Shown: one piece after another, positions 27,103 through 41,215 of the stretch
Position numbering within the stretch: the stretch's first letter is position 1
Layout: every line of letters begins with the position of its first letter
Source: an uncultured Solirubrobacterales bacterium
GTDB lineage: Bacteria > Actinomycetota > Thermoleophilia > Solirubrobacterales > JBBDJG01
Direction of reading: 5' to 3'
DNA: 64,000 bases
Assembly: GCA_963816975.1 (NCBI GenBank)
Contig: CAWFMD010000006.1
Coordinates: 1,374,465 to 1,438,464, forward strand
Made by a program: the position numbers and the translations under genes
Notes under the pieces: model-generated
Seen by the model: only the letters and a program-made list of their open reading frames with translations
Told to the model about the DNA's origin: nothing
Databases searched by the model: none

Positions 27103-27485
27103 TGACCAACGCCGAGCCGGCACGGCGCGAGGGCGGCGGGCCCGGCCCCGAGATCATGCGGCTGCTGGAGCAGGCCCTGAAGCCCGTGGAGCCCCCGGCC
27201 GGGTTCCTGGGCCAGCTGGAGGGCCGTCTCGCCAACGTCGAGGCCGCGGCGCTCGAAGCGCTCGGGGAGGTCCGCGACTGGGAGCTGGACGCGATCCGGG
27301 ACCCGCGCAACTGGGTCCGGCCGGTCGCCGCGGTGGCGGTCGGCACGGCCGCGGGCGCCGCGCTGGTCGTGCTCGGCCTGCGCTCGCGCCGCCGGCGCAC
27401 GAGCGGCCTGCGGGGAATCGCGGAGCAGAGCGGCAAGGTGGCGAACGAGGCTTTCTCGTCCGCCCGCGGACTGATCCGTCAATGA
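27102..27485 (+). CDS. Putative anti-sigma factor / membrane protein coupled to the ECF sigma gene
   Basis: ATG 27102 overlaps the sigma gene TGA by 1 nt. 127 aa with one TM segment near the C-terminus (VAAVAVGTAAGAALVVLGL). No HxxxCxxC zinc motif. Confidence 0.5.
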   Translation: MTNAEPARREGGGPGPEIMRLLEQALKPVEPPAGFLGQLEGRLANVEAAALEALGEVRDWELDAIRDPRNWVRPVAAVAVGTAAGAALVVLGLRSRRRRTSGLRGIAEQSGKVANEAFSSARGLIRQ

Positions 27486-29112: not shown

Positions 29113-29421
29113 ATGTGGTGCGCACGCTTCACCGATAGCCAGCTGGAGACCCTGAAGGATCTGATCCGGATCCAGGGAGAGATCGGTTCCGACCTCGAGG
29201 GCGCCCTGGAGGCTTTGGAGCTTGCCCGCTGGGACGACCTCCCCGAGGCGCAGCTTCCGTGGCCCCAGGTGATCGAGCTGGCCCAGCGCCAGGGCATCAG
29301 CGAGGCGGACGTCGTGTGGGACATGTCCGGGCGCCGCAAGGAGCCGGCCGCCCCGCGCGTGCGCAAGGCACGCAAGCCCGGGACGCGGGCGCCCAAGCGA
29401 GCCCGCAAGGCCGCCGGCTAG
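29113..29421 (+). CDS. Small hypothetical protein: acidic helical N-part with Lys/Arg/Pro/Ala-rich basic tail
   Basis: 102 aa, mostly high third-position GC. Tail RRKEPAAPRVRKARKPGTRAPKRARKAAG. No family recognised. Confidence 0.5.
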   Translation: MWCARFTDSQLETLKDLIRIQGEIGSDLEGALEALELARWDDLPEAQLPWPQVIELAQRQGISEADVVWDMSGRRKEPAAPRVRKARKPGTRAPKRARKAAG

Positions 29422-29465: not shown

Positions 29466-30305
29466 TCAGTAGTCGTAGAAGCCGGCGCCGGACTTGCGGC
29501 CCAGGCGCCCTTCGCCGACCAGTTCCTTGACGCGGCCGGGAGGCCGGTGCGCGGCGTCCCCCGTGTCCGCGTAGAGCGCCTCGCCGATTGCCGCGGCGAC
29601 GTCGATGCCGATCAGGTCCAGCAGCTGGAGCGGGCCCATCGGGTGCGAGGCGCCGAGCCTCATGCAGGCGTCGACCTGCTGCGGCTCCATTCCCGTGCGC
29701 TCGAGCAGCCGGACCGCGTCGAACAGGTACGGGAAGAGCAGCCGGTTGACCACGAATCCCGGCTCGTCGGGCACCTCGACGGGGGTCTTGCCGATGGCCT
29801 CGCAAAAGGCCGTCGCGCGAGTCCGCACCGGCCCGTCCGCGGTCGCGGGGAAGCACAGCTCGACGAGCTTCATCCTGGCCACCGGGTTGAAGACGTGCAG
29901 GCCGAAGAATCGCGCCGGGTCACCGCTCACGTCCGCAAGCCGGCCGATGCCGAGCGAGGACGTGGTCGTGGCGAGCAGCGCGTGGGGCGCCAGCAGGGCG
30001 CGCAGGGAGGGGAGCAGCTCGTGCTTCAGCGCCGGCTGCTCCGCGACCGCCTCGACCACGAGTGTCGCGTCGGCAAGCACATCCCGGTCAGTCGTGACGG
30101 TCAGCTGCTGTCCGTGCCTGTGGCTCAGGGCCTTGCGCGCGCGCCGTGCCGAGTCATCGCTGCGGGCCCACATCACGACGTCGCCGCCGTGTCCCATCAC
30201 GCAGGCCGCAAGCCCGCATGCGATCGTGCCCGAGCCCACGATGGCCACGCGCTCGGGAAAGGTCTGGAAGGCCGTGCCGCGGTCGCCCGCCCCTGGTTGA
30301 CTCAT
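29466..30305 (-). CDS. 3-hydroxyacyl-CoA (3-hydroxybutyryl-CoA) dehydrogenase
   Basis: VAIVGSGTIACGLA Rossmann motif, central HVFNPV block, C-terminal GRKSGAGFYDY. Confidence 0.9.
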   Translation of the reverse strand: MSQPGAGDRGTAFQTFPERVAIVGSGTIACGLAACVMGHGGDVVMWARSDDSARRARKALSHRHGQQLTVTTDRDVLADATLVVEAVAEQPALKHELLPSLRALLAPHALLATTTSSLGIGRLADVSGDPARFFGLHVFNPVARMKLVELCFPATADGPVRTRATAFCEAIGKTPVEVPDEPGFVVNRLLFPYLFDAVRLLERTGMEPQQVDACMRLGASHPMGPLQLLDLIGIDVAAAIGEALYADTGDAAHRPPGRVKELVGEGRLGRKSGAGFYDY

Positions 30306-30312
30306 GAGTCAA
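30297..30312. promoter_or_regulatory. Perfect 16-bp palindrome TTGACTCATGAGTCAA (candidate operator) in the divergent beta-oxidation promoter region
   Basis: Self-complementary 16-mer centred on the ATG of the 3-hydroxyacyl-CoA dehydrogenase gene, 103 nt upstream of the thiolase ATG. Related site at 39805..39824. Confidence 0.45.
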
Positions 30313-30414
30313 TGAAGTAACATAGCCGCTGCACGAGGCACCAAAACTTTCGCCGCGCCGAAGCTCCCCGAATGGACGTCGGAAGCGGCCGGCACGACAA
30401 TCGGAGGCGCACCG

Positions 30415-31599
30415 ATGCAGAACGGGACTGGCCGGGAAGTCGTGATCGTCGAGGCTGCACGCACACCGATCGGGCGCGGCCACCCCGAGAAGGGCTACTA
30501 CAAGAACACCCACCCGAACGAACTGCTCGGCAGGGCGTTCTCGGCCGTGATCGAGCGCTCCGGGATCCCGGCCCAGGACGTCGAGGACGTGATCACCGGC
30601 TGCGTCCAACAGCTCGGGGAGCAGGGCTTCAACGTCGGCCGCAACGCCTGGCTGCAGGCGGGCCTCCCGATCACCACCCCGGCAACCACCGTCGACCGCC
30701 AGTGCGGCTCGGCGCAGCAGGCGGTGAACTTCGGCGCCGCCCTGGTTGCGTCCGGCGTGCACGACGTCGTGATCGGCGGCGGCGTCGAGCACATGGGCCA
30801 CATCCCGATGGGCGTCACCTTCAACTTCGTGGACCAGGTCGGCTCCCCGTGGCCGGACGAGCTGATGGCCCGCTACAACCTCGTCCCGCAGGGCATCTCG
30901 GCCGAGATGATCGCCGACCAGTGGGAGATCCCGCGCTCCGAGCTGGACGAGCTGGGGCTGCGTTCCCACCGCAACGCCGCGCGCGCCACGGAGGAGGGCC
31001 GCTTCGAGCGCGAGACGATCCCGATGACCGTGAAGATGAACGGTTCGGAGGAGACCGTCGTGGCCGATCAGGGCATCCGCCCCGACACCAGCCTCGAGCA
31101 GCTGTCCCAGCTGAAGCCGGCGTTCAAGCAGGACGGCAAGGTGACGGCCGGCAACGCGAGCCAGATCTCCGACGGCGCCGCCGCGGTGCTGCTGATGACG
31201 CGCGAGAAGGCTGACGCATACGGCCTCAAGCCGCGCGCCCGCATCCTCGACCAGACCACGGTCGGGGTGGACCCGGTGATCATGCTGACCGGCCCGATCC
31301 CGGCAACCCACAAGCTGCTGGAGCGCAACAAGATGAAGATCGACGACATCGACCTGATCGAGATCAACGAGGCGTTCGCGTCCGTCGTCGCGGCCTGGCG
31401 GCGCGAGCTCGAGCCCGACATGGACCGCGTCAACGTGAACGGTGGCGCGATCGCGCTCGGGCACCCGCTCGGGTCGACCGGCGCACGCCTGATCACGACG
31501 CTGCTGCACGAGCTCGAGCGCACGGACAAGGAGATCGGCCTCGTGACGATGTGCTGTGGTGGAGGCCTCGGCACGGGCACGCTGATCCAGCGCGTCTGA
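30415..31599 (+). CDS. Acetyl-CoA C-acyltransferase (thiolase)
   Basis: VVIVEAARTPIGRG start, active-site region VDRQCGSAQQA, C-terminal NVNGGAIALGHPLGSTGARL and MCCGGGLG. Confidence 0.95.
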   Translation: MQNGTGREVVIVEAARTPIGRGHPEKGYYKNTHPNELLGRAFSAVIERSGIPAQDVEDVITGCVQQLGEQGFNVGRNAWLQAGLPITTPATTVDRQCGSAQQAVNFGAALVASGVHDVVIGGGVEHMGHIPMGVTFNFVDQVGSPWPDELMARYNLVPQGISAEMIADQWEIPRSELDELGLRSHRNAARATEEGRFERETIPMTVKMNGSEETVVADQGIRPDTSLEQLSQLKPAFKQDGKVTAGNASQISDGAAAVLLMTREKADAYGLKPRARILDQTTVGVDPVIMLTGPIPATHKLLERNKMKIDDIDLIEINEAFASVVAAWRRELEPDMDRVNVNGGAIALGHPLGSTGARLITTLLHELERTDKEIGLVTMCCGGGLGTGTLIQRV

Positions 31600-31606
31600 G
31601 GCGCCG

Positions 31607-32779
31607 GTGGACCTGACCCTGAGTCCCAGCGAGGAGGCCTTCCGCGACGAGGTGCGCTCGTGGCTGGCCGAGCATCACCCGGGCGCGGCCCCCGAGGACG
31701 AGAACGAGGCGTTCGAGTTCGCGCGCCGCTGGCAGCGCAAGCTGCACGACGGCGGCTGGGCCGGCGTCTCGTGGCCGGAGCAGTACGGCGGCCGTGGCGC
31801 CACGCTGATCGAGCAGGCGATCTTCTACGAGGAGATGGTGCGCGCCAAGGCGCCCCGAATCGCGAACGTCCTCGGTCTCGTGATGGGCGGCCCCGTCGTG
31901 ATCACGCACGGCACGGACGCGCAGAAGCAGCGCTACCTCGAGCCGATCCTGTCGGCCGAGGAGATCTGGTGCCAGGGATTCTCCGAGCCGGAGGCAGGCT
32001 CCGACCTGGCGTCCTTGAAGACCCGCGCCGTGAAGCGCGACGGCGGCTGGGTCGTGTCGGGGCAGAAGGTCTGGACCACCCTTGCCCACGAGGCGAAGTG
32101 GTGCATGCTCGTGGCGCGCACCGACCCGGACGCGCCCAAGCACCAGGGCCTCACCTACTTCCTGATGGACATGGAGCAGGACGGCGTCGAGGTCAAGCCG
32201 CTCGTGCAGATCACGGGCGAGGCCGAGTTCAACGAGATCTTCATGGACGAGGCCTACATCCCCGACGACAACGTCGTGGGTGGGGTGGGCAACGGCTGGA
32301 GCGTCGCGATCACGACCTTGATGAACGAGCGCGCCGGCCTCGCGTTCGCCGCCCAGGCGGCACTCGAGCTGGCGATGAGCAGGGCGATCGCGCTTGTGAA
32401 CACGACGTCGCGCAACGGCGGCCCGATTTCCGAGGACCCGGTGGTGCGCGACCGCCTCTCCCAGCTGTTCATCGAGTCCGAGATCTTTCGCGTGACGAAC
32501 CTCCGGGGGCTCACGAAGATCATGAAGAACGGCGTGCCGGGTCCCGAGGGTTCGCTCGGGAAGTGGCACTGGGCCGAGATCAATCAGCACCTGATGGAGC
32601 TGGTGATGGAGATCGAGGGCCCGTACTCGCAGTTCGCCGACGGCTCGCACCACTCGCTCGGCGGAGACTGGCAGTACCAGTACCTGCGCACCCGCGCAAA
32701 CTCCATCGAGGGCGGCACCACGGACATCCTCAAGAACATCGTCGCCGAGCGGGTCCTGGGCCTGCCGAAGCTCAGATAG
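31607..32779 (+). CDS. Acyl-CoA dehydrogenase family protein
   Basis: WCQGFSEPEAGSDLASL, GQKVWTT and C-terminal IEGGTTDILKNIVAERVLGLP. GTG start. Confidence 0.9.
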   Translation: MDLTLSPSEEAFRDEVRSWLAEHHPGAAPEDENEAFEFARRWQRKLHDGGWAGVSWPEQYGGRGATLIEQAIFYEEMVRAKAPRIANVLGLVMGGPVVITHGTDAQKQRYLEPILSAEEIWCQGFSEPEAGSDLASLKTRAVKRDGGWVVSGQKVWTTLAHEAKWCMLVARTDPDAPKHQGLTYFLMDMEQDGVEVKPLVQITGEAEFNEIFMDEAYIPDDNVVGGVGNGWSVAITTLMNERAGLAFAAQAALELAMSRAIALVNTTSRNGGPISEDPVVRDRLSQLFIESEIFRVTNLRGLTKIMKNGVPGPEGSLGKWHWAEINQHLMELVMEIEGPYSQFADGSHHSLGGDWQYQYLRTRANSIEGGTTDILKNIVAERVLGLPKLR

Positions 32780-32824
32780 GGCCGGCAATGAGCACGCTCA
32801 TTACCGGGTCTGGAGAGGGATGAC

Positions 32825-33970
32825 GTGAACTTCGACCTAACCGACGAGCAACAGATGCTGCAGGCCGCGGCGCGGGAGTTCCTCGCGGCGCGGTTGAAGT
32901 CCGAGCGGATCAGGGAGCTCGCCGAGTCCGACGACGCATTCAGCGAGGACCTGTGGCGCGAGATCAGCGATCTCAACTGGCCGGGTCTGATGATCTCGGA
33001 GCAGTACGGAGGACAGGGGCTGGGCACGGTGGAGCTGGCGGTGCTGATGGAGCAGCTCGGCTACGCACTCACGCCGGGGCCGATCCTCTCCAGCATCCTG
33101 GCCGGGATCGCGCTCGAGACCGCGGCCACCGAGGAGCAGAAGGAGCGCTACCTCGCGCCCCTCGCCACCGGCGAGCAGCGGGCGTCGCTGGCGCTCTGGG
33201 ACGCGGGGGCGGGCTGGTCGCCGAACGACATCACGCTGGAGCCCGAGGAAGCGAGCGGCGGCTACGTGCTGCGCGGCGAGAAGCTGTTCGTGATGGACGC
33301 CGCCCGGGCCGACTTCCTGATCGTCGGCGCGACGGGCGACCGACGGTTCATCGTCGCGCGCGACGCCGACGGCGTTTCGATCGCTCCCACCGAGACCATC
33401 GATGCGACCCGCAAGCAGTACGCCGTCAAGCTCGATGGTGTGCAGGTCTCAGCCGACGCGGCGTTCGGCGGTGACGGTGCGCTGGCCCCCGCGCGGGTGC
33501 GCGCTTTCACGGCGGTCGCGGCCGAGCTCACGGGAGTCGCCCAGCGCGCCATGGAGATGGCGGTCGAATACGCCAAGGAGCGCAAGCAGTTCGGCCGGCC
33601 GATCGGCTCCTACCAGGCCGTCTCGCACCGCTGCGCGCAGATGCTGCTGGAGACGGAGGCGGCGCGGTCGGCGGCCTACTACGCGGCCTGGGCGGCGGAC
33701 AACGAGCCCGAGACCGCCCCGCTCGCGGCGTCGATGGCGAAGGCGTATGCATCCGACGCCGGCGTCCGCGTCACGAACGCCTCGCTGCAGGTCCATGGCG
33801 GCATCGGGTTCACGTGGGAGCACGACCTGCACTTCTTCCTGAAGCGGGCCGCTGCCGACGCTGTGATGTTCGGCGACGCGCGCTGGCATCGCGAGCAGGT
33901 CGCGCGGATGGTGATCGACTCCCCCGGCGTCGGGGCCTCCGAGCCGACCGTGGTCGCGGCCGCGACCTAG
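32825..33970 (+). CDS. Acyl-CoA dehydrogenase family protein
   Basis: FDLTDEQQMLQAAAREF, YAKERKQFGRPIGSYQAV and LQVHGGIGFTWEHDLH. Confidence 0.9.
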   Translation: MNFDLTDEQQMLQAAAREFLAARLKSERIRELAESDDAFSEDLWREISDLNWPGLMISEQYGGQGLGTVELAVLMEQLGYALTPGPILSSILAGIALETAATEEQKERYLAPLATGEQRASLALWDAGAGWSPNDITLEPEEASGGYVLRGEKLFVMDAARADFLIVGATGDRRFIVARDADGVSIAPTETIDATRKQYAVKLDGVQVSADAAFGGDGALAPARVRAFTAVAAELTGVAQRAMEMAVEYAKERKQFGRPIGSYQAVSHRCAQMLLETEAARSAAYYAAWAADNEPETAPLAASMAKAYASDAGVRVTNASLQVHGGIGFTWEHDLHFFLKRAAADAVMFGDARWHREQVARMVIDSPGVGASEPTVVAAAT

Positions 33971-35478
33971 CGCGCGCGCTTGGCGGGCTTGGCCCGCGCG
34001 AGGTAGCGCTGGCCGGCGCGCACGGTGACGGTCTTGTGTTTGGCGATGTCGCGCACCTTGACCACGCCGCTGGTGACGCGCGTGAGGGTGCCGGCGCACC
34101 TGTCCTCGACCAGCCAGCGGGTGCCGCGCACGGTGGCCGCGCTGCGGCGTCCACGGGTCTTGTAGCGGCCCGTCGCGTTGCCCCACAGGCGGCGGCGGGG
34201 GCGGCGCTTGGCGCTCGCCTGCACGCCCCGGCCCGCGCGGCAGCGGGGCATCTGGCCGGCGAGCCTCAGCTCCACCAGTCCGTTCGCATTTTTGCGTTGC
34301 TGCCCGATGAACCGGCCGCCGTGGAAGACCCCCGACTGGATGCCGCCGGCAGGCGTGGCCGACGCGAGGCTGATGCGGCCCCGGCGCACATCGATCAGGG
34401 AGCCGACCGGCACCTGTGTGGCATCGGTCAGGGGCTTGAGCCGGCCCAGCCGCTTTCCGTGGCGGCGGGCCACCTTCACGACTCCCGAGACGCGCGCGAC
34501 GTTGAGCTCGCGGTAGATGTCGGGCGCGGCAAGCTGCGGTTGCGGCAACCCGGGCAGACCGGGAGAGGTGGTCTGGGGCGCCCGAGTGACGCCGACGGGG
34601 TTGTAGAACAGGCCGCCCGCGGACACCCCGGCCTGGGCGCCGGTGACGGTGTCGACACTGATCAGTCCACCGGATCCGCCGAACGCATCGGGGTCTGCCA
34701 CGAGCGCCGTGCCGGCCTCGGCGAACACACCCGCCGGGTCCTTGAGCGGGCTGCCCGCCGCCACCGGGGCGATGCTGCCGTTGGCGAGGCTGAGCGCCCA
34801 CAGGGACTCTTTCGTGGTGACGAGTACCCGGCCGTCCGGACTCACCGCGATGCCGCGCAGGGCGGAGCCGAACTGCGCTCCGGAGGCGACCTGCGACTGC
34901 ACCCCGGTCGTGGGGTCGATCCTGATCAACCCACCCTTCACGCTGTCCACCTTGGAATCGGCCACATAGATGACGCCGCCGGGCCCGACCGCGACGCCCA
35001 CGGGATCCACCAGCAGGCCATCGGCGCCGATCACCGTCTGGGCGCCGGTGGCCGGCTCGACGCGCACGACCTTGCCGCCCTCGTCGGAAACCAGCAGCGC
35101 GCCGTCGGCGGCGATTGCAACGCCCGTCGGCCTGTAGAAGTACCCCAGCTGAGCCACGACGGTCTGGGTCCCGGTCGTCGCGTCGATCGCCACAATCGCT
35201 CCCTTGCCGAGCGCGTGGCTGTCACTCACGAACAGCGTGCCGTCCGCGCGCGCGACGATCCCGGACGGCTTCTTCAGGTGCCCCTCCTTGGAAAGCAGTG
35301 TCTGGCCGCCCCCCGAGGTGTCGACCCGCACGACGCTGGCGCGCCCTTCGTCGACCACCAGCGCATCCGTGGAGGCGGCGAGCGCGGCGCCGGGCGTGGC
35401 CAGGGCGGCGGCGACCGAGAGCGCGATCGCGACCAGGGTGGCCCGCGGCGAGGGGCCGGGGTGGTGCAGGCTCAGCAC
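33967..35478 (-). CDS. Secreted NHL/beta-propeller repeat protein with C-terminal FecR-like domain
   Basis: GTG 35478, signal peptide (ATLVAIALSVAAALATPGAALA). Repeated units of the type P.G[IV]A....G.L[FL]V[SA]D (PSGIVARADGTLFVSD, PTGVAIAADGALLVSD, PVGVAVGPGGVIYVAD). Basic beta-rich C-terminus (VSGVVKV..VPVGSLIDV..). The upstream part of the track ORF overlaps the next gene and is rejected. Confidence 0.7.
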   Translation of the reverse strand: MLSLHHPGPSPRATLVAIALSVAAALATPGAALAASTDALVVDEGRASVVRVDTSGGGQTLLSKEGHLKKPSGIVARADGTLFVSDSHALGKGAIVAIDATTGTQTVVAQLGYFYRPTGVAIAADGALLVSDEGGKVVRVEPATGAQTVIGADGLLVDPVGVAVGPGGVIYVADSKVDSVKGGLIRIDPTTGVQSQVASGAQFGSALRGIAVSPDGRVLVTTKESLWALSLANGSIAPVAAGSPLKDPAGVFAEAGTALVADPDAFGGSGGLISVDTVTGAQAGVSAGGLFYNPVGVTRAPQTTSPGLPGLPQPQLAAPDIYRELNVARVSGVVKVARRHGKRLGRLKPLTDATQVPVGSLIDVRRGRISLASATPAGGIQSGVFHGGRFIGQQRKNANGLVELRLAGQMPRCRAGRGVQASAKRRPRRRLWGNATGRYKTRGRRSAATVRGTRWLVEDRCAGTLTRVTSGVVKVRDIAKHKTVTVRAGQRYLARAKPAKRAR

Positions 35479-35531
35479 CCTGGTGCTATCGGCCGGCGCG
35501 CATGCGGACTTGAGGCGCGGACGGGCCACGC

Positions 35532-37349
35532 CTAGCGACGCGGTGCCGTGGCGAGGGCCTTTGCCGGGCGCCGGCGAAGATCCCGCAGGGAGGTTCGCTC
35601 GCGCTCCATCCGCGGCGCCAGCGCGAGGAATCTCTCCACGAGCCGGGGGTCGAACGCCGTGCCGCTGCGCGCACGGATCTCGGCGAGCGCGGCGTCGAGG
35701 CTCCATGCGGGCTTGTAGGCGCGCTCCGACATGAGCGCGTCGAATACGTCGCAGATCGAGCAGATCCTTCCCGCCATCGGGATCTCCTCTCCGCGCAGTC
35801 CCGCCGGGTAGCCGCTGCCGTCCCACCGCTCGTGGTGCGTGCGGGCGATCACCTCGGCAACCTGGATCAGACGCGATCCTGAGCCCGCGAGAATCTCGCT
35901 GCCGATCTTCGTGTGGCTCCTCATGATCTCGCGCTCCTCGGCCGTGAACTCGCCCGGCTTGCGCAGGATCGCGTCGGGGATCCCGATCTTGCCGAGGTCG
36001 TGCAGGGCGCTCGCGTCCCGGAGGAGCTCGGCGTCGTCGACGCTCCAGCCGGCGTCGACTGCGAGTTGATAACAGAGCCGGCCGATTCGCTCGATGTGCT
36101 CACCGGTTTCGCGGTCGCGCGACTCCGCCGCCTGTCCGAGCCGGTACACGACCTCCATCTGGGTCTCGCGCAGCTCCGTGGTGCGCTTGCGCACCTCTCG
36201 CTCGAGCTCGTCCTTGCGATGCACGACGCGGCGGCGCTCGCTGCTCTCCGCAAGGTATGCGGCGGTGACCGCGGTCACGGTTCCGGTCATCAGTGCCGCG
36301 ATCGGATAGGTGAAGACCACGACCCACCCGGCGTTGAAGAGCTCCTGCGCGACGATCGCGTAGCCGATCGCCACCGAGGGAACGAGCACGACGAGCAGCC
36401 GCGCCCGCATGTAGGCGATTCCGAGCGTGGGTGCGAGCCCAAGTGCCAGGATCATGAGCAGGTCGATCCAGTCCGGCACGCTGCGCAGCGGGACACCGTG
36501 CATGGCGGTCCAGATCGCGTTCGCCTGGATCTCCGGTCCCGACATCGGATTCTCGTCTGACATCGGTGTCGGGTGGATGTCCTGCAGGGTCGACGCCGAC
36601 GCGCCCACCACGACCACCTTGTCGCGTAGCGCCGCGAAGGGGACGTCGCCTTCGACCAGGTCGGCGAAGGAGAAGGTCGGCACCGTTGCCGGGGGGCCGC
36701 GGTAGTCGATCCATGCGCCGCCGTGGTCGAACAGATGCCGCGGCGGCGGGTGTCCCGTCGCCTGGCCGGCGGTGGCCACGCCGAAGGTCTCGAGCCCGGC
36801 CTCCTCGTAGGCGATCTTGCGGACCACGCCCCCGCGGTCGACGGGGACGTTGCTCGCGGCGGCCCGGGCCCGCGCCCGCGCGACGTTGGCGTCGCCACCG
36901 AGCACGTTCGTGCGGCCCCGCTGGTCGACCTCCGTGGTGGCGAGCACCACATTGCCCGCCCGCCTGATCGCACGGTAGAGGGCAAGATCTTCGGCCGGCT
37001 TCGTGGGCTCCGTGAACTGGACGTCGTACGCGATCTGCCTGACGCCGGCCGCACGGAGCCGATCGATCGCGGTGGCGTGCAGCGAGCGTGGGAAGGGCCA
37101 CTGGATCTCCAGCCTGGAGAAGGTCACCTCGTCGATCGCGATCACGACTACGTCGTCGGGGGGATCCGCCTCGCGCAGTGTGAAGCGCATGTCGAGGCTG
37201 TCACCCTCCAGGGGTCCCCAGGCATCCGTCACGTACGCCAGGCAACTGAGGGCGACGGCGATCGTGGCCGCGAGCACCGTACCAACCCGACGGCCGGCCG
37301 CGCGGGTCGCGCGAAGGTCGCGCGCCCGACCCTTCGATCTCCTGCGCAT
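35532..37349 (-). CDS. CHASE2 sensor domain / HD-GYP domain signalling protein (putative c-di-GMP phosphodiesterase)
   Basis: Periplasmic CHASE2 pattern (VVVIAIDEVTF..WPFPRSLHA..YDVQF), three C-proximal TM helices, then HD-GYP (HIERIG, ALHDLGKIGIPD, HHERWDGSGYP). ATG 37349 chosen; GTG 37367 is possible. Confidence 0.85.
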   Translation of the reverse strand: MRRRSKGRARDLRATRAAGRRVGTVLAATIAVALSCLAYVTDAWGPLEGDSLDMRFTLREADPPDDVVVIAIDEVTFSRLEIQWPFPRSLHATAIDRLRAAGVRQIAYDVQFTEPTKPAEDLALYRAIRRAGNVVLATTEVDQRGRTNVLGGDANVARARARAAASNVPVDRGGVVRKIAYEEAGLETFGVATAGQATGHPPPRHLFDHGGAWIDYRGPPATVPTFSFADLVEGDVPFAALRDKVVVVGASASTLQDIHPTPMSDENPMSGPEIQANAIWTAMHGVPLRSVPDWIDLLMILALGLAPTLGIAYMRARLLVVLVPSVAIGYAIVAQELFNAGWVVVFTYPIAALMTGTVTAVTAAYLAESSERRRVVHRKDELEREVRKRTTELRETQMEVVYRLGQAAESRDRETGEHIERIGRLCYQLAVDAGWSVDDAELLRDASALHDLGKIGIPDAILRKPGEFTAEEREIMRSHTKIGSEILAGSGSRLIQVAEVIARTHHERWDGSGYPAGLRGEEIPMAGRICSICDVFDALMSERAYKPAWSLDAALAEIRARSGTAFDPRLVERFLALAPRMERERTSLRDLRRRPAKALATAPRR

Positions 37350-37474
37350 GTGAGTCCGTGAGAGCACGAGCTGACGAGTGCCCTGGGGGCGCCCGACAGT
37401 CGCATCGGCATCGGCTCGGCGGCGCTTGAGAACGATCGGCCCGCCCGCTCGCGCCAGTGCGGCGCGAGCTTCGG

Positions 37475-38549: not shown

Positions 38550-39737
38550 CTACAGTCCCTCGTCGCGCACGCGCACGATCTCGGCCAGCTCGTCGATCCT
38601 GGCCTGCACGCCCAGGCTGATCGCGGACTCGTCTCCCAGGATCCAGGCGTGGTTGTAGACGCCCCGCACCGGGTCGAACCGGTAGCCGGGCTGGATGTCG
38701 AGCAGGTAGTCCTCCAGCGGCCCTGGGAGCTTGTCCTTGTCGTCGACGAGCAGCAACGGCCCATAGGTGCCGCTCCCTCCGAGCGCCGCAGCCGCGGCCG
38801 CGTCGCCCGTGCGGCCGGAGTTGGCGAACACGAGGCCGTGTCCGGGGTCGCGGACTCCCCAGCCGAAGGTCGCGTCGGAGTAGCGTGCGAACGCGATCGC
38901 GTTGGTCACGGGTGTGCTGCCCTGGATCCGCTTGACCGGGCCGAGCCGCCGCAGCGAGCGCTCCACTTCTGACGAGATCACGTGCTCGGGCCCGAGCACG
39001 TAGATGCGCGGCTGCTCGTGGCGGTTGATCGCCTGCCGCGTCGCGCGCGGCAGGGCGTTGCGTTCCGTGAAGAGCACCGAGTCGCCGGACTTGGCCGCCC
39101 ACGAAGCCGCGGGCATCGCGAACTGCGGCTGGTCCACCGAGACGATCACGACGTTGGCGGACGGGCGCTTCGCGACATCGGTGCGAAACGCGTCGATCGT
39201 GGCTGCGAGCCTGACCGGGTCGCCGCCCGCAATGCGGCGCGAGCGCAGCTCTCCCGGTGCCCGAGCGTCCCCGACCTCGATGGCCTGCGCGCCGCCCGCG
39301 TCGGGCGCCCCGGTCGGTTTGAGCGTGTCCAGGGCGGTCGCGGTGGCGCGCGGCAGGTCTCCGCCGTCGGTCAGCAGGATCGGGGCGCGCAGCGGCCGGC
39401 CCATCAGGGCGGCGGCCGCGATCGCCGCGCGCCAGTCGTCCCGGTCGACGAGCGTCACGGCCCGCGGGCGCGTGCCGCGGGTCTGCCCGGGATAGGTCGC
39501 GGCGGCCGTCCCGGCCGCGTCGGCGACCGCGTCCCGACCACCGACCCGCGTCGTGTTCTTGGTCGCGAGCGCGGGGAAGCCGAGCACGGCCTGGTTCGCG
39601 GTGTCCTCCTTGAGCTGGACCTCGACCGGATTGCCGTCGTCGCCGCACGCGCCGATCGCCAGCGCAAGCGCGACCATCACGATCACCGTCCCGGTCAGAT
39701 GCGCGCCTGTGCGGGGCTCCGCCATCGAGCGGCGCAC
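38550..39737 (-). CDS. Lipoprotein with three putative cell-wall-binding (CWB2-like) repeats
   Basis: Lipobox LAIGAC. Three repeats with R[VI].G.D....A pattern plus 'ILLTD..LP', 'VLFTERNALP' and 'LLLVDDKDKLP' segments, typical of cell wall binding repeat 2. Confidence 0.65.
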   Translation of the reverse strand: MRRSMAEPRTGAHLTGTVIVMVALALAIGACGDDGNPVEVQLKEDTANQAVLGFPALATKNTTRVGGRDAVADAAGTAAATYPGQTRGTRPRAVTLVDRDDWRAAIAAAALMGRPLRAPILLTDGGDLPRATATALDTLKPTGAPDAGGAQAIEVGDARAPGELRSRRIAGGDPVRLAATIDAFRTDVAKRPSANVVIVSVDQPQFAMPAASWAAKSGDSVLFTERNALPRATRQAINRHEQPRIYVLGPEHVISSEVERSLRRLGPVKRIQGSTPVTNAIAFARYSDATFGWGVRDPGHGLVFANSGRTGDAAAAAALGGSGTYGPLLLVDDKDKLPGPLEDYLLDIQPGYRFDPVRGVYNHAWILGDESAISLGVQARIDELAEIVRVRDEGL

Positions 39738-39804
39738 GATAGCGGCTGGACCTCCCGGGCCCGAAAGCTGGTTGACGGGGCCCGAGGGGGGTACACTTTG
39801 ACTT

Positions 39805-39824
39805 GGTTGACTCGTCAGTCAACC
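39805..39824. promoter_or_regulatory. Inverted repeat GGTTGACT-CGTC-AGTCAACC (candidate operator), preceded by an extra TTGACT half-site
   Basis: 8-bp arms with a 4-nt spacer, 60 nt upstream of the acyl-CoA dehydrogenase ATG. Same TTGACT/AGTCAA arms as 30297..30312. Confidence 0.45.
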
Positions 39825-39883
39825 GCCGCACGGCATGGCAGCCCGAGCGTCATGCGGCGGCCGAAGACTTGGAGCCGGAGCGG

Positions 39884-41215
39884 ATGGACTTTCGACTCAG
39901 CGACGACAGCCTCGAGTGGCAGCAGTACTGCCGGCAGTTCGCACGCGAGGTGGTGCGGCCTGCCGCTGCGCAGCACGATCGGGACGAGAGCGTGCCTTAC
40001 GACGTGATGCAGAAGGCCTACGAGTGGAAGCTCGCCGGCCTCGAGTGGATCCAGACGCTGCAGACGGACACGGAAGGGCTGAAGGGCGTCATCTACGCCG
40101 AGGAGGTCCACTGGGGCTGTGCGGGCATCGCACTCGCCATCTCCGCCTCCACGCTGTGCGCGGCGGGGATCGCCTCCTCCGGCACACCCGAGCAGATCGG
40201 CCGCTGGATCCCCGAGGTGATCGGCAACAAGGACGACCCCAAGATCGGGGCCTACGCCGTCACCGAGCCCGCTGCCGGCTCGGACGTGAAGTCGCTGCGC
40301 ACGACCGCCAAGCGCGACGGCGACGACTGGATCCTGAACGGCACCAAGACCTTCATCTCGAACGGCGGCATCGCGGATGTGACGGTCGTGGTCGCGACCG
40401 TCGACCCGGACCTCGGGCACCGGGGCCAGGCGTCGTTCATCGTGACCGGCGACAACCCCGGCCTGAAGCTCGGCCACAAGGAGTCCAAGCTCGGCATCCG
40501 TGCCTCACAGACCGCAGAGATCGTGCTGGAGGACTGCCGCGTCCCCGGCGACCACCTGCTGGGCGGCGAGGAGAAGTTGCAGCGCAAGCTCGAGCGGGCC
40601 CGCTCGGGCAAGAGCTCTGGTGCCTCCGGCGCGCTGGCGACGTTCGAGATCACGCGCCCGACCGTCGGCGCCTCTGCGCTGGGCATCGCGCAGGCCGCCT
40701 ACGAGTGGACTCTCGAGTACCTGCACGGCCGCACCGAGGACGGGCGTCCCCTGCTCCAGGAGCAGCGCATCCAGCAGGTGCTGGCCGACGTTGCGACCGA
40801 GATCGAGGCGGCGCGACTGCTGGTGTGGCGCGCGGCCTGGATGGGCCGCCATGGTGTGCCGATGACCGGCGGCCAGGGCTCCATGTCCAAGCTCAAGGGC
40901 GGCGACGTGGCGATGTGGGCCACCACGGAGTTGATGGACCTGGTCGGGCCCGCCGCGCAGTCGATGGACTATCCGCTCGAGAAGTGGTTCCGCGACGCCA
41001 AGATCTACCAGATCTTCGAGGGCACGGCGCAGATCCAGCGGCTGGTCATCGCCCGCATGCAGACGACCGAGTACACCGAGCGGCTGCAGTTCGCGCAGGA
41101 GGTGGCGGCCGCCGCCCAGGGCCAGGGGTCCGGCAACGGTGTCGTCTCGCAGGCGCCGGGCAACGCTCCGTCGGAGCAGCCCGCCGGCGCCGAGGCGCAG
41201 CGTGTCCCTGCCTAG
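39884..41215 (+). CDS. Acyl-CoA dehydrogenase
   Basis: AYAVTEPAAGSDV, GTKTFISNGG and IYQIFEGTAQIQRLVIAR. GGAG lies before ATG 39884. Low-complexity C-terminal tail. Confidence 0.9.
   Translation: MDFRLSDDSLEWQQYCRQFAREVVRPAAAQHDRDESVPYDVMQKAYEWKLAGLEWIQTLQTDTEGLKGVIYAEEVHWGCAGIALAISASTLCAAGIASSGTPEQIGRWIPEVIGNKDDPKIGAYAVTEPAAGSDVKSLRTTAKRDGDDWILNGTKTFISNGGIADVTVVVATVDPDLGHRGQASFIVTGDNPGLKLGHKESKLGIRASQTAEIVLEDCRVPGDHLLGGEEKLQRKLERARSGKSSGASGALATFEITRPTVGASALGIAQAAYEWTLEYLHGRTEDGRPLLQEQRIQQVLADVATEIEAARLLVWRAAWMGRHGVPMTGGQGSMSKLKGGDVAMWATTELMDLVGPAAQSMDYPLEKWFRDAKIYQIFEGTAQIQRLVIARMQTTEYTERLQFAQEVAAAAQGQGSGNGVVSQAPGNAPSEQPAGAEAQRVPA

Follow-up and report, generated by a model that had tools for sequence, protein, structure and literature searches.

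A conserved palindrome at acyl-CoA metabolism genes of Solirubrobacterales as the candidate operator of a FadR-like TetR repressor

In a 64,000-nt stretch of DNA from an uncultured Solirubrobacterales bacterium (contig CAWFMD010000006.1 of assembly GCA_963816975.1; the whole stretch is hereafter called the window), a palindrome lies on the start codon of a 3-hydroxyacyl-CoA dehydrogenase (HCDH) gene, and its arms return in front of a gene for an acyl-CoA dehydrogenase (ACAD). Are these palindromes operators, which genes would they control, and which protein would bind them? The comparison with related loci makes it likely that both are operators of a lineage-specific regulon for fatty-acid degradation, recognised by a FadR-like repressor of the TetR family that is encoded outside the window.

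Two palindromes beside acyl-CoA metabolism genes

The two sites and the genes beside them are the following.

30295..30314, unstranded: candidate operator 1, GGTTGACTCATGAGTCAATG, with the core 16-mer TTGACTCATGAGTCAA at 30297-30312; matrix score 29.1
39805..39824, unstranded: candidate operator 2, GGTTGACTCGTCAGTCAACC, with perfect 8-4-8 arms; matrix score 32.4
29466..30305, minus strand: HCDH gene, by Pfam (3HCDH_N and 3HCDH) and NCBIfam
30415..33970, plus strand: putative target operon with a thiolase gene (30415-31599) and two ACAD genes (31607-32779 and 32825-33970), by Pfam and NCBIfam
39884..41215, plus strand: third ACAD gene (ACAD3), putative target of operator 2, by Pfam on the open reading frame (ORF) 39803-41215 and by NCBIfam, with the start at 39884 taken from orthologs

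The core 16-mer of operator 1 is completely self-complementary on inspection. The initial annotation had placed it on the ATG of the HCDH gene, within a 109-nt divergent region, and had seen its arms recur at 39805-39824 before a third ACAD gene. All of this was borne out: the HCDH start codon, read as CAT at 30303-30305, stands in the centre of the 16-mer, the thiolase ATG lies at 30415, and the second site has perfect 8-nt arms and is located 59 nt upstream of the ATG (39884) of a gene that Pfam assigns to the ACADs.

Operators 1 and 2 are the only strong matches to the motif in the window. A scan with the 16-mer, allowing up to three mismatches, found 2 matches against 0.03 expected, a number that none of 100 shuffles reached, and the exact pattern TTGACT-N4-AGTCAA is expected about 2.5e-4 times per window, as calculated from a base composition of about 70% G+C. 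With a 20-column weight matrix, for which shuffled high-GC DNA gives 0.2 scores of at least 18 per 704 kb, the two sites scored 29.1 and 32.4 and the next best match 13.1. This last match, at 27465-27484, is weak and was taken as background. A chance origin of the two sites is excluded.

The ATG in the centre of operator 1 is very probably the true start of the HCDH gene, as judged from the stop codon upstream of it, the third codon positions and two related loci. The ORF (29466-30305, minus strand) offers no earlier start codon; an in-frame TGA is found two codons upstream, at 30311-30309, and the next candidate in frame, a GTG, comes only at codon 20. From codon 5 to codon 20, the third position is G/C in 15 of 16 cases, and in the related locus L001 the 20-codon frame of the start region is kept despite many substitutions. 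An ATG inside the operator centre is also present in L001 and in locus L149, where the public gene call begins at this codon. Codons 2-3 of the HCDH gene (AGT CAA) are at the same time one arm of the operator.

The order thiolase-ACAD-ACAD of the operon is the same in L001, L006 and L149. Among the NCBIfam models, its two ACADs (31607-33970) match best those for pimC (large) and pimD (small), which together form a heteromeric dehydrogenase, and the thiolase (30415-31599) matches best that for a steroid 3-ketoacyl-CoA thiolase; all these matches are below the equivalog cut-offs.

Half-site-like copies of the motif, CTGGTTGACG and TTTGACTT, are found just upstream of operator 2, at 39768-39777 and 39797-39804. 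These copies show no conservation in the orthologous loci and were set aside.

Conservation of the motif and the genes it accompanies

A genome scan with the HCDH protein gave 18 loci, the eight closest of which (L001-L008, 54-81% identity) belong to Solirubrobacterales or uncultured actinomycete metagenome-assembled genomes. The palindrome is present at the thiolase promoter in all eight, and in none of the ten more distant loci (Streptomyces, Kitasatospora and others). Its distance upstream from the thiolase start is about 70-165 nt over the eight loci and about 70-115 nt in seven of them. The thiolase and HCDH genes of L003-L005 are separated by a gene of some 740 codons with an apparently MMPL-like C-terminus, and the motif remains beside the thiolase. 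The site therefore appears to be primarily a promoter element of the thiolase operon, which the HCDH gene would share where the two genes adjoin. The location on the HCDH start, as initially annotated, is thus correct for the window, with the amendment that the site is in the first place a part of the thiolase-operon promoter.

The site upstream of ACAD3 is conserved as well. It is found in nine loci selected by the motif and in both loci that were chosen through the ACAD3 protein alone (L149 and L150), where it lies 63 nt upstream of the start. L149, from assembly GCA_038326655.1, is collinear with the window from 26.5 to 52 kb at 63-90% protein identity, with the gene order ECF sigma factor, CNNM, small ORF, HCDH, thiolase, ACAD, ACAD, methyltransferase, CWB2, ACAD3, CDF and onward. 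Its 21 kb contain two sites and no more: the first covers the HCDH ATG, the second precedes ACAD3. This conservation at orthologous promoters, in 8/8 loci selected by HCDH and 2/2 selected by ACAD3, agrees with the initial proposal of an operator rather than a chance repeat.

The 16 sites that were not selected by the motif share the consensus GG(T/C)TGACT-N4-AGTCAA(T/C)C, in which TGA (positions 4-6) and AGTCA (positions 13-17) are invariant. Their departures from dyad symmetry are all one-sided, and compensatory pairs are absent (0 in the 16 sites). This suggests that the sequence itself is recognised by a protein and argues against conservation of a hairpin.

We also scanned metagenome contigs for the exact pattern GGTTGACT-N4-AGTCAACC and obtained at least 120 loci, comprising 70 with at least 60% G+C and 50 with low G+C; the taxonomy of these contigs was assigned from protein identity and G+C alone. 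All counts in this and the next two paragraphs refer to the matches listed. The 70 high-GC instances are nearly all intergenic, at 10-130 nt from a start codon, and their centre is usually GGCC, GGTC, GACC or GGCG. After clustering and annotation of the flanking genes, about 35 of the 70 were found to flank thiolase, HCDH, ACAD or SCP2 genes. The enrichment for acyl-CoA metabolism beside the motif is overwhelming, and the link to lipid catabolism drawn in the initial annotation holds.

A thiolase gene stands beside the motif in 15 high-GC loci and an HCDH gene in seven. ACAD3 orthologs, 51-85% identical to the ACAD3 of the window, do so in nine loci, and all nine are divergent from a CWB2 gene, as at operator 2. 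A 100-aa gene for an SCP2 sterol/lipid carrier follows the motif in 6-7 loci, where its usual divergent neighbour is a gene for an M17 leucyl aminopeptidase; the loci concerned are L024, L025, L042, L043, L066 and L077 (and L090 and L109). A CN-hydrolase gene is found beside the motif in eight loci, and a few loci have another ACAD gene or an SDR gene there. An unannotated family of 375-aa proteins (L035, L052, L067) lies 212 nt from a site.

The 50 low-GC matches (for example L019, L020, L026-L028, L047 and L065) were set aside. They are longer hairpins with A-runs and T-runs from unrelated organisms, and look like terminators with no relation to the actinobacterial operator.

Tandem operators, 23 bp apart from start to start, are observed at L068 (1683-1725), upstream of an ACAD3 ortholog, and at L091 (576-618). 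Such tandem sites suggest cooperative or multi-dimer binding at some promoters.

Candidate repressor and promoter geometry

The window itself offers no candidate for the binding protein. Pfam searches of about 50 ORFs and tblastn with TetR revealed no gene of the TetR, GntR, MarR or a similar family in the window, as the initial annotation had stated, and the only regulators seen there are two sigma factors and CarD. The candidate comes from the CN-hydrolase loci. Six motif-selected loci extend far enough past the CN-hydrolase gene to show what follows, and all six have a tetR gene of some 200 codons there, which either adjoins the hydrolase gene or overlaps its end. For a test independent of the motif, we fetched loci through TetR homologs only, which gave nine distinct loci (L139, L140/141 and L142-L148). 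Cluster names said little about the taxonomy of the TetR contigs; a single 9-kb contig bore the bin label "Rokuibacteriota". The CN-hydrolase-tetR operon is present in all nine, and each has a single matrix site with a score of at least 18 (24.5-33.1), directly upstream of the CN-hydrolase start. Altogether, the motif precedes the CN-hydrolase-tetR operon in 15 of the 15 loci examined.

The TetR proteins of L021, L056 and L095 comprise a TetR_N domain and the YsiA-like C-terminal domain PF08359, the latter with 29-32 bits against a Pfam cut-off of 21. The best solved relatives of the candidate TetR are FadR of Bacillus subtilis (3WHB/1VI0) and of Bacillus halodurans (5GP9), matched over the full length with E values of about 1e-20; Mce3R and KstR2 are among the weaker PDB matches. 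Of the NCBIfam models, "fatty acid metabolism transcriptional regulator FadR" scores highest with 104.5 bits, followed by a model with 55 bits, and TetR homologs carry the JGI label "fatty acid metabolism regulator protein". Locus L139, which has the operator and the CN-hydrolase-tetR operon, is another contig of GCA_038326655.1 (L149 on contig 1, L139 on contig 3). A close relative of the window organism therefore possesses the regulator and all three operator classes.

The initial annotation had proposed a FadR-like repressor of the TetR or GntR type. The TetR part is supported by the YsiA/FadR-type tetR gene, which has the motif in front of it at all loci examined and occurs in the same assembly as the target sites. 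The GntR part found no candidate: no such gene was seen among the window ORFs or the annotated recurrent gene families near the sites, where only part of the neighbouring ORFs was scanned.

FadR of Bacillus (YsiA) is an acyl-CoA-responsive TetR family repressor of the fad regulon with the box GATGAATGAATACTCATTCAT (PMC5397183). The candidate resembles it in having TetR_N and PF08359, and in the palindromic operator of about 20 bp at beta-oxidation promoters together with autoregulation, which is predicted here from the site before the tetR operon. Unlike in Bacillus, the regulator gene is located behind a CN-hydrolase gene, and the host is a high-GC actinobacterium of the Thermoleophilia. Bacillus FadR binds as two dimers.

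The geometry of the sites was examined with promoter elements defined as consensus-like hexamers, from which we inferred the transcription start sites. The two elements in the window are the following.

30318..30324, unstranded: A/T-rich -10-like element, read as TAACAT (30318-30323) toward the thiolase and as TATGTT (30324-30319) toward HCDH
39792..39797, plus strand: -10-like hexamer TACACT, preceded by GGG and located 7 nt upstream of operator 2

The first element lies 3 nt from the 20-mer of operator 1 and may be a -10 shared by two divergent promoters. A TAnnnT hexamer is found 2-14 nt (mostly 2-8 nt) after the operator in all thiolase loci. In three of them, the A/T-rich element reads TAnnnT on the other strand as well (TATGTT in the window and in L149, TAGTCT in L033). 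The HCDH transcript would therefore begin at the edge of the operator, with a leader of only about 6-7 nt in the window.

At the ACAD3 promoters, the order of the elements is reversed. A (G)GGTAnnnT element is located 6-9 nt before the operator in ten of 11 ACAD3 loci, and in L098 TACACT abuts the operator; the hexamers of the other loci are TACAAT, TATCCT, TAACAT, TATTCT, TATCGT, TAAGGT and TAGAAT. With a -10 at 7 nt upstream, operator 2 would correspond to approximately +1 to +20 of the ACAD3 transcript. The tetR operon has an evident -10 in seven of the nine TetR-selected loci (TATAAT in L139, L142, L143 and L144, TATACT in L146 and L148, TAAGAT in L140), and there the operator starts 0-15 nt after the hexamer. 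L145 has only a TTATAAT-like sequence, and no evident hexamer was seen in the stretch read of L147. The operator thus lies upstream of the -10 at thiolase promoters and downstream of it at ACAD3 and tetR promoters. An operator abutting the -10 from either side would be typical of steric repression.

Operator 2 also faces the CWB2 cell-wall-binding gene (38550-39741, minus strand; ATG at 39725), which is divergent from ACAD3. This gene has an apparent -10 of its own, TATCGT (39741-39736), about 10 nt before the ATG, and the sequence cacgataacg is kept in L040, L082 and L101. Its mRNA would thus seem to be of the leaderless type. With this apparent -10, and with operator 2 about 65 nt upstream, the CWB2 gene is probably outside the control of the operator.

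Based on these observations, we propose the following mechanism. A YsiA/FadR-type TetR dimer, or possibly two dimers, would bind GG(T/C)TGACT-N4-AGTCAA(T/C)C; this repressor would be the second gene product of a CN-hydrolase-tetR operon located elsewhere in the genome. At operator 1, the bound protein would lie directly upstream of the thiolase-operon -10 (TAACAT), covering roughly -14 to -35, and for the divergent HCDH promoter, read as TATGTT on the opposite strand, the same DNA would be the first 20 nt or so of the downstream region. As the operator stands beside a -10 that reads on both strands, a single operator would block both promoters. At operator 2, which starts 7 nt after the ACAD3 -10, the repressor would cover the start site, and at its own operon, where the operator follows just after the -10, it would act on its own synthesis. 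By homology with Bacillus FadR, long-chain acyl-CoA would free the repressor and so derepress beta-oxidation. What the sequences show directly is the motif with its conservation, its place beside -10-like hexamers, the enrichment at genes of acyl-CoA metabolism and the joint presence with the tetR operon in one genome; which protein binds, whether it represses, what releases it and where transcription starts are inferred.

Several observations are in line with a system of the TetR-FadR type: a dyad operator of 16-20 bp beside -10-like hexamers, beta-oxidation genes as targets, the PF08359 domain, an operator at the promoter of the regulator, and regulator and target sites in one genome (GCA_038326655.1). 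Other observations weigh against this interpretation. The 104.5 bits of the TetR protein are below the cut-off of 200 of the NCBIfam FadR equivalog (NF053878); by this threshold the candidate is FadR-like and not an equivalog of Bacillus FadR. The Bacillus box GATGAATGAATACTCATTCAT (PMC5397183) is unrelated to the GGTTGACT-N4-AGTCAACC found here. The TetR gene was found in related genomes and not in the 64-kb window, and a motif before tetR indicates membership in the regulon and not the identity of the binder. In 13 loci, 12 of which are distinct, a gene of the MerR family lies upstream of the operon (L021, L022, L048, L093, L095, L133, L139-L146). The metagenome loci were chosen on perfect palindromes and include some near-duplicate contigs from different samples, so that the independent counts are somewhat lower. 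Finally, HCDH in L006 and L007 has an apparent -10 of its own about 55 nt from the operator, and control of HCDH by the operator may not be universal.

Alternative explanations, known systems and neighbouring genes

The MerR gene suggests a different binder for what would still be a genuine operator of a lipid regulon. Either the FtsR/Rv1828-like MerR protein, whose gene is located near the CN-hydrolase-tetR operon, or some other, unlinked factor would recognise the palindrome, and TetR would be a mere member of the regulon. The recurrence of the MerR gene speaks for this reading, and co-regulation by itself does not name the binder. However, the motif is located downstream of the MerR gene and not at the MerR promoter, and variable genes (GNAT, SDR, DUF2804, MOSC, peptidase S8) stand between the two. 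The best NCBIfam model for the MerR protein is the cell-division regulator FtsR. Operators of the MerR type lie within the 19-20-bp spacer between -35 and -10, whereas the palindrome precedes the -10 at thiolase promoters, with 15-19 nt between arm and hexamer, and follows it at ACAD3 and tetR. The TetR gene, in contrast, follows directly in the operon behind the motif in all 15 loci and encodes a protein of the acyl-CoA-sensing FadR type. We consider a binder other than TetR improbable.

The MerR gene is syntenic with the CN-hydrolase-tetR operon (L139, 4388-5080; L021, 3824-4513; L140-L146). Further upstream, genes for CoA-transferase III, BKACE and a carboxyltransferase belong to the same synteny.

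According to a second alternative, the palindrome is a bare promoter element, in which TTGACT on each strand serves as the -35 of two divergent promoters of the sigma-70 type and no dedicated regulator is involved. TTGACT matches five of the six positions of the -35 consensus TTGACA, and at thiolase promoters a TAnnnT hexamer follows 15-19 nt after the left arm. Nevertheless, a scan for consensus sigma-70 promoters with a spacing of 16-18 nt found nothing at either window site, and the spacer between arm and hexamer, 15 nt long in the window, ranges between 15 and 19 nt among orthologs. The palindrome is downstream of the -10 at ACAD3 and tetR promoters. Moreover, conservation is stricter (16/16) in the arm that is farther from any supposed -35 function (AGTCA), and a sigma factor has no need of dyad symmetry. 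This explanation is very improbable.

Least probable is a nucleic-acid hairpin, either a stem-loop in the 5' untranslated region acting on mRNA stability or translation, or a terminator: the stem at operator 2, which the ACAD3 mRNA probably carries at its 5' end, reaches -11.3 kcal/mol (z = -2.3), but operator 1 folds weakly (-6.1 kcal/mol, z = -0.85), neither site is followed by a T-tract (a terminator scan was also negative), Rfam gave no match, pair 3-18 is broken in 7/16 sites with a compensatory change at no pair, so that arm sequence and not pairing is conserved, and the element lies upstream of the -10 at thiolase promoters. Sites of the CRP/FNR type have a TGA-N6-TCA core (TGTGA-N6-TCACA or TTGAT-N4-ATCAA), and the invariant cores here are TGA-N8-TCA; this class was rejected.

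The preferred reading, an operator bound by a FadR-like TetR repressor, was also compared with known systems. The FadR proteins of Thermus thermophilus and Sulfolobus acidocaldarius are TetR repressors of fatty-acid degradation genes, with 15-16-bp dyad sites that overlap promoters and with release by acyl-CoA (PMC6449355). Their motif sequences differ from the Solirubrobacterales palindrome, and the Sulfolobus regulator acts on one gene cluster. The Thermus consensus is presumably TTRNACYNRGTNYAA. FadR of Escherichia coli does the same job, the repression of fad genes with release by acyl-CoA, with a protein of another family (GntR) and another operator, which we take to be approximately ANCTGGTCNGACNTGTT, of the TGGTCnGACCA type; no GntR-type gene was seen beside any of the sites here.

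KstR, KstR2, Mce3R and BkaR are mycobacterial TetR repressors of lipid catabolism (PMC1995591, PMC3920632). As in those systems, the palindromes here are common to divergent operons of lipid or CoA metabolism and to the promoter of the regulator itself. Their motifs differ from the palindrome, with GTTAnTnnnnAnTAAC as the BkaR box and presumably TnnAACnnGTTnnA as the KstR motif, and all four belong to other TetR subfamilies. A comparison of the palindrome with the motifs of BkaR, Bacillus FadR and Sulfolobus FadR showed that it is none of these. The box of the E. coli TetR family protein RutR, presumably TTGACCAnnTGGTCAA, shares the outer TTGAC...GTCAA and the 16-bp length. On that assumption, a TetR protein can read such arms. 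RutR differs in acting on pyrimidine utilisation and in the inner positions of its box, and the RutR models of NCBIfam give only 30-39 bits on the candidate TetR.

A literature search for the motif in several spellings found no paper, and a search for "Solirubrobacter" together with "FadR" returned irrelevant matches only. A FadR-like regulon in this lineage would be a switch of a familiar kind, whose binding sequence was not found described in the searched literature. There is a modest chance, well short of even, that the system is more than another FadR box. One bound repressor would then shut off two divergent promoters, and the operator centre would have been recruited as the HCDH start, with an arm encoding residues 2-3 (Ser-Gln) and an mRNA of the leaderless type. 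The regulon would extend beyond beta-oxidation, to a CN-hydrolase resembling deaminated glutathione amidase, to SCP2 with the M17 aminopeptidase and to SDR, or the true binder would not be a TetR protein.

Actinobacteria of the Solirubrobacterales and other Thermoleophilia abound in soil and have hardly ever been cultured, and no transcriptional regulon for these groups was found in the literature searched. The present sites give a first sketch of a regulon for fatty-acid catabolism in the lineage, comprising the thiolase, HCDH, the three ACADs, SCP2 and the CN-hydrolase-fadR operon, with a candidate pair of operator and regulator. This could improve the annotation of thousands of metagenomic "TetR/AcrR" genes and could provide a candidate acyl-CoA biosensor part for high-GC hosts. 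As the switch is conceptually of the expected kind and not surprising, the gain is incremental.

A few further features were observed in and around the loci. A PROSITE-style TetR regular expression had a single match in 641 kb of loci, a TetR gene in L078 that was rejected as the regulator: it belongs to the TetR_C_46 subfamily and lies 1 kb from the site. This gene has a distinct palindrome of its own, CTGACTGAACGGTCGGTCAG, before the start codon (L078, 4040-4070). An ORF of 102 aa between the CNNM/CorC gene and HCDH (window 29113-29421, plus strand) had no match in Pfam or NCBIfam and is present in eight examined loci (seven of L001-L008, and L149). Between ACAD2 and the methyltransferase gene, the window carries an NHL-repeat gene and a CHASE2-HD signalling gene (HD_5, HD-GYP-like) at 33967-37367. 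Both are missing in L001 and L149, where ACAD2 and the methyltransferase gene abut, and in L150 two large genes for surface proteins of the SpaA/SdrD type take their place. This region of the window looks like a variable insertion spot.

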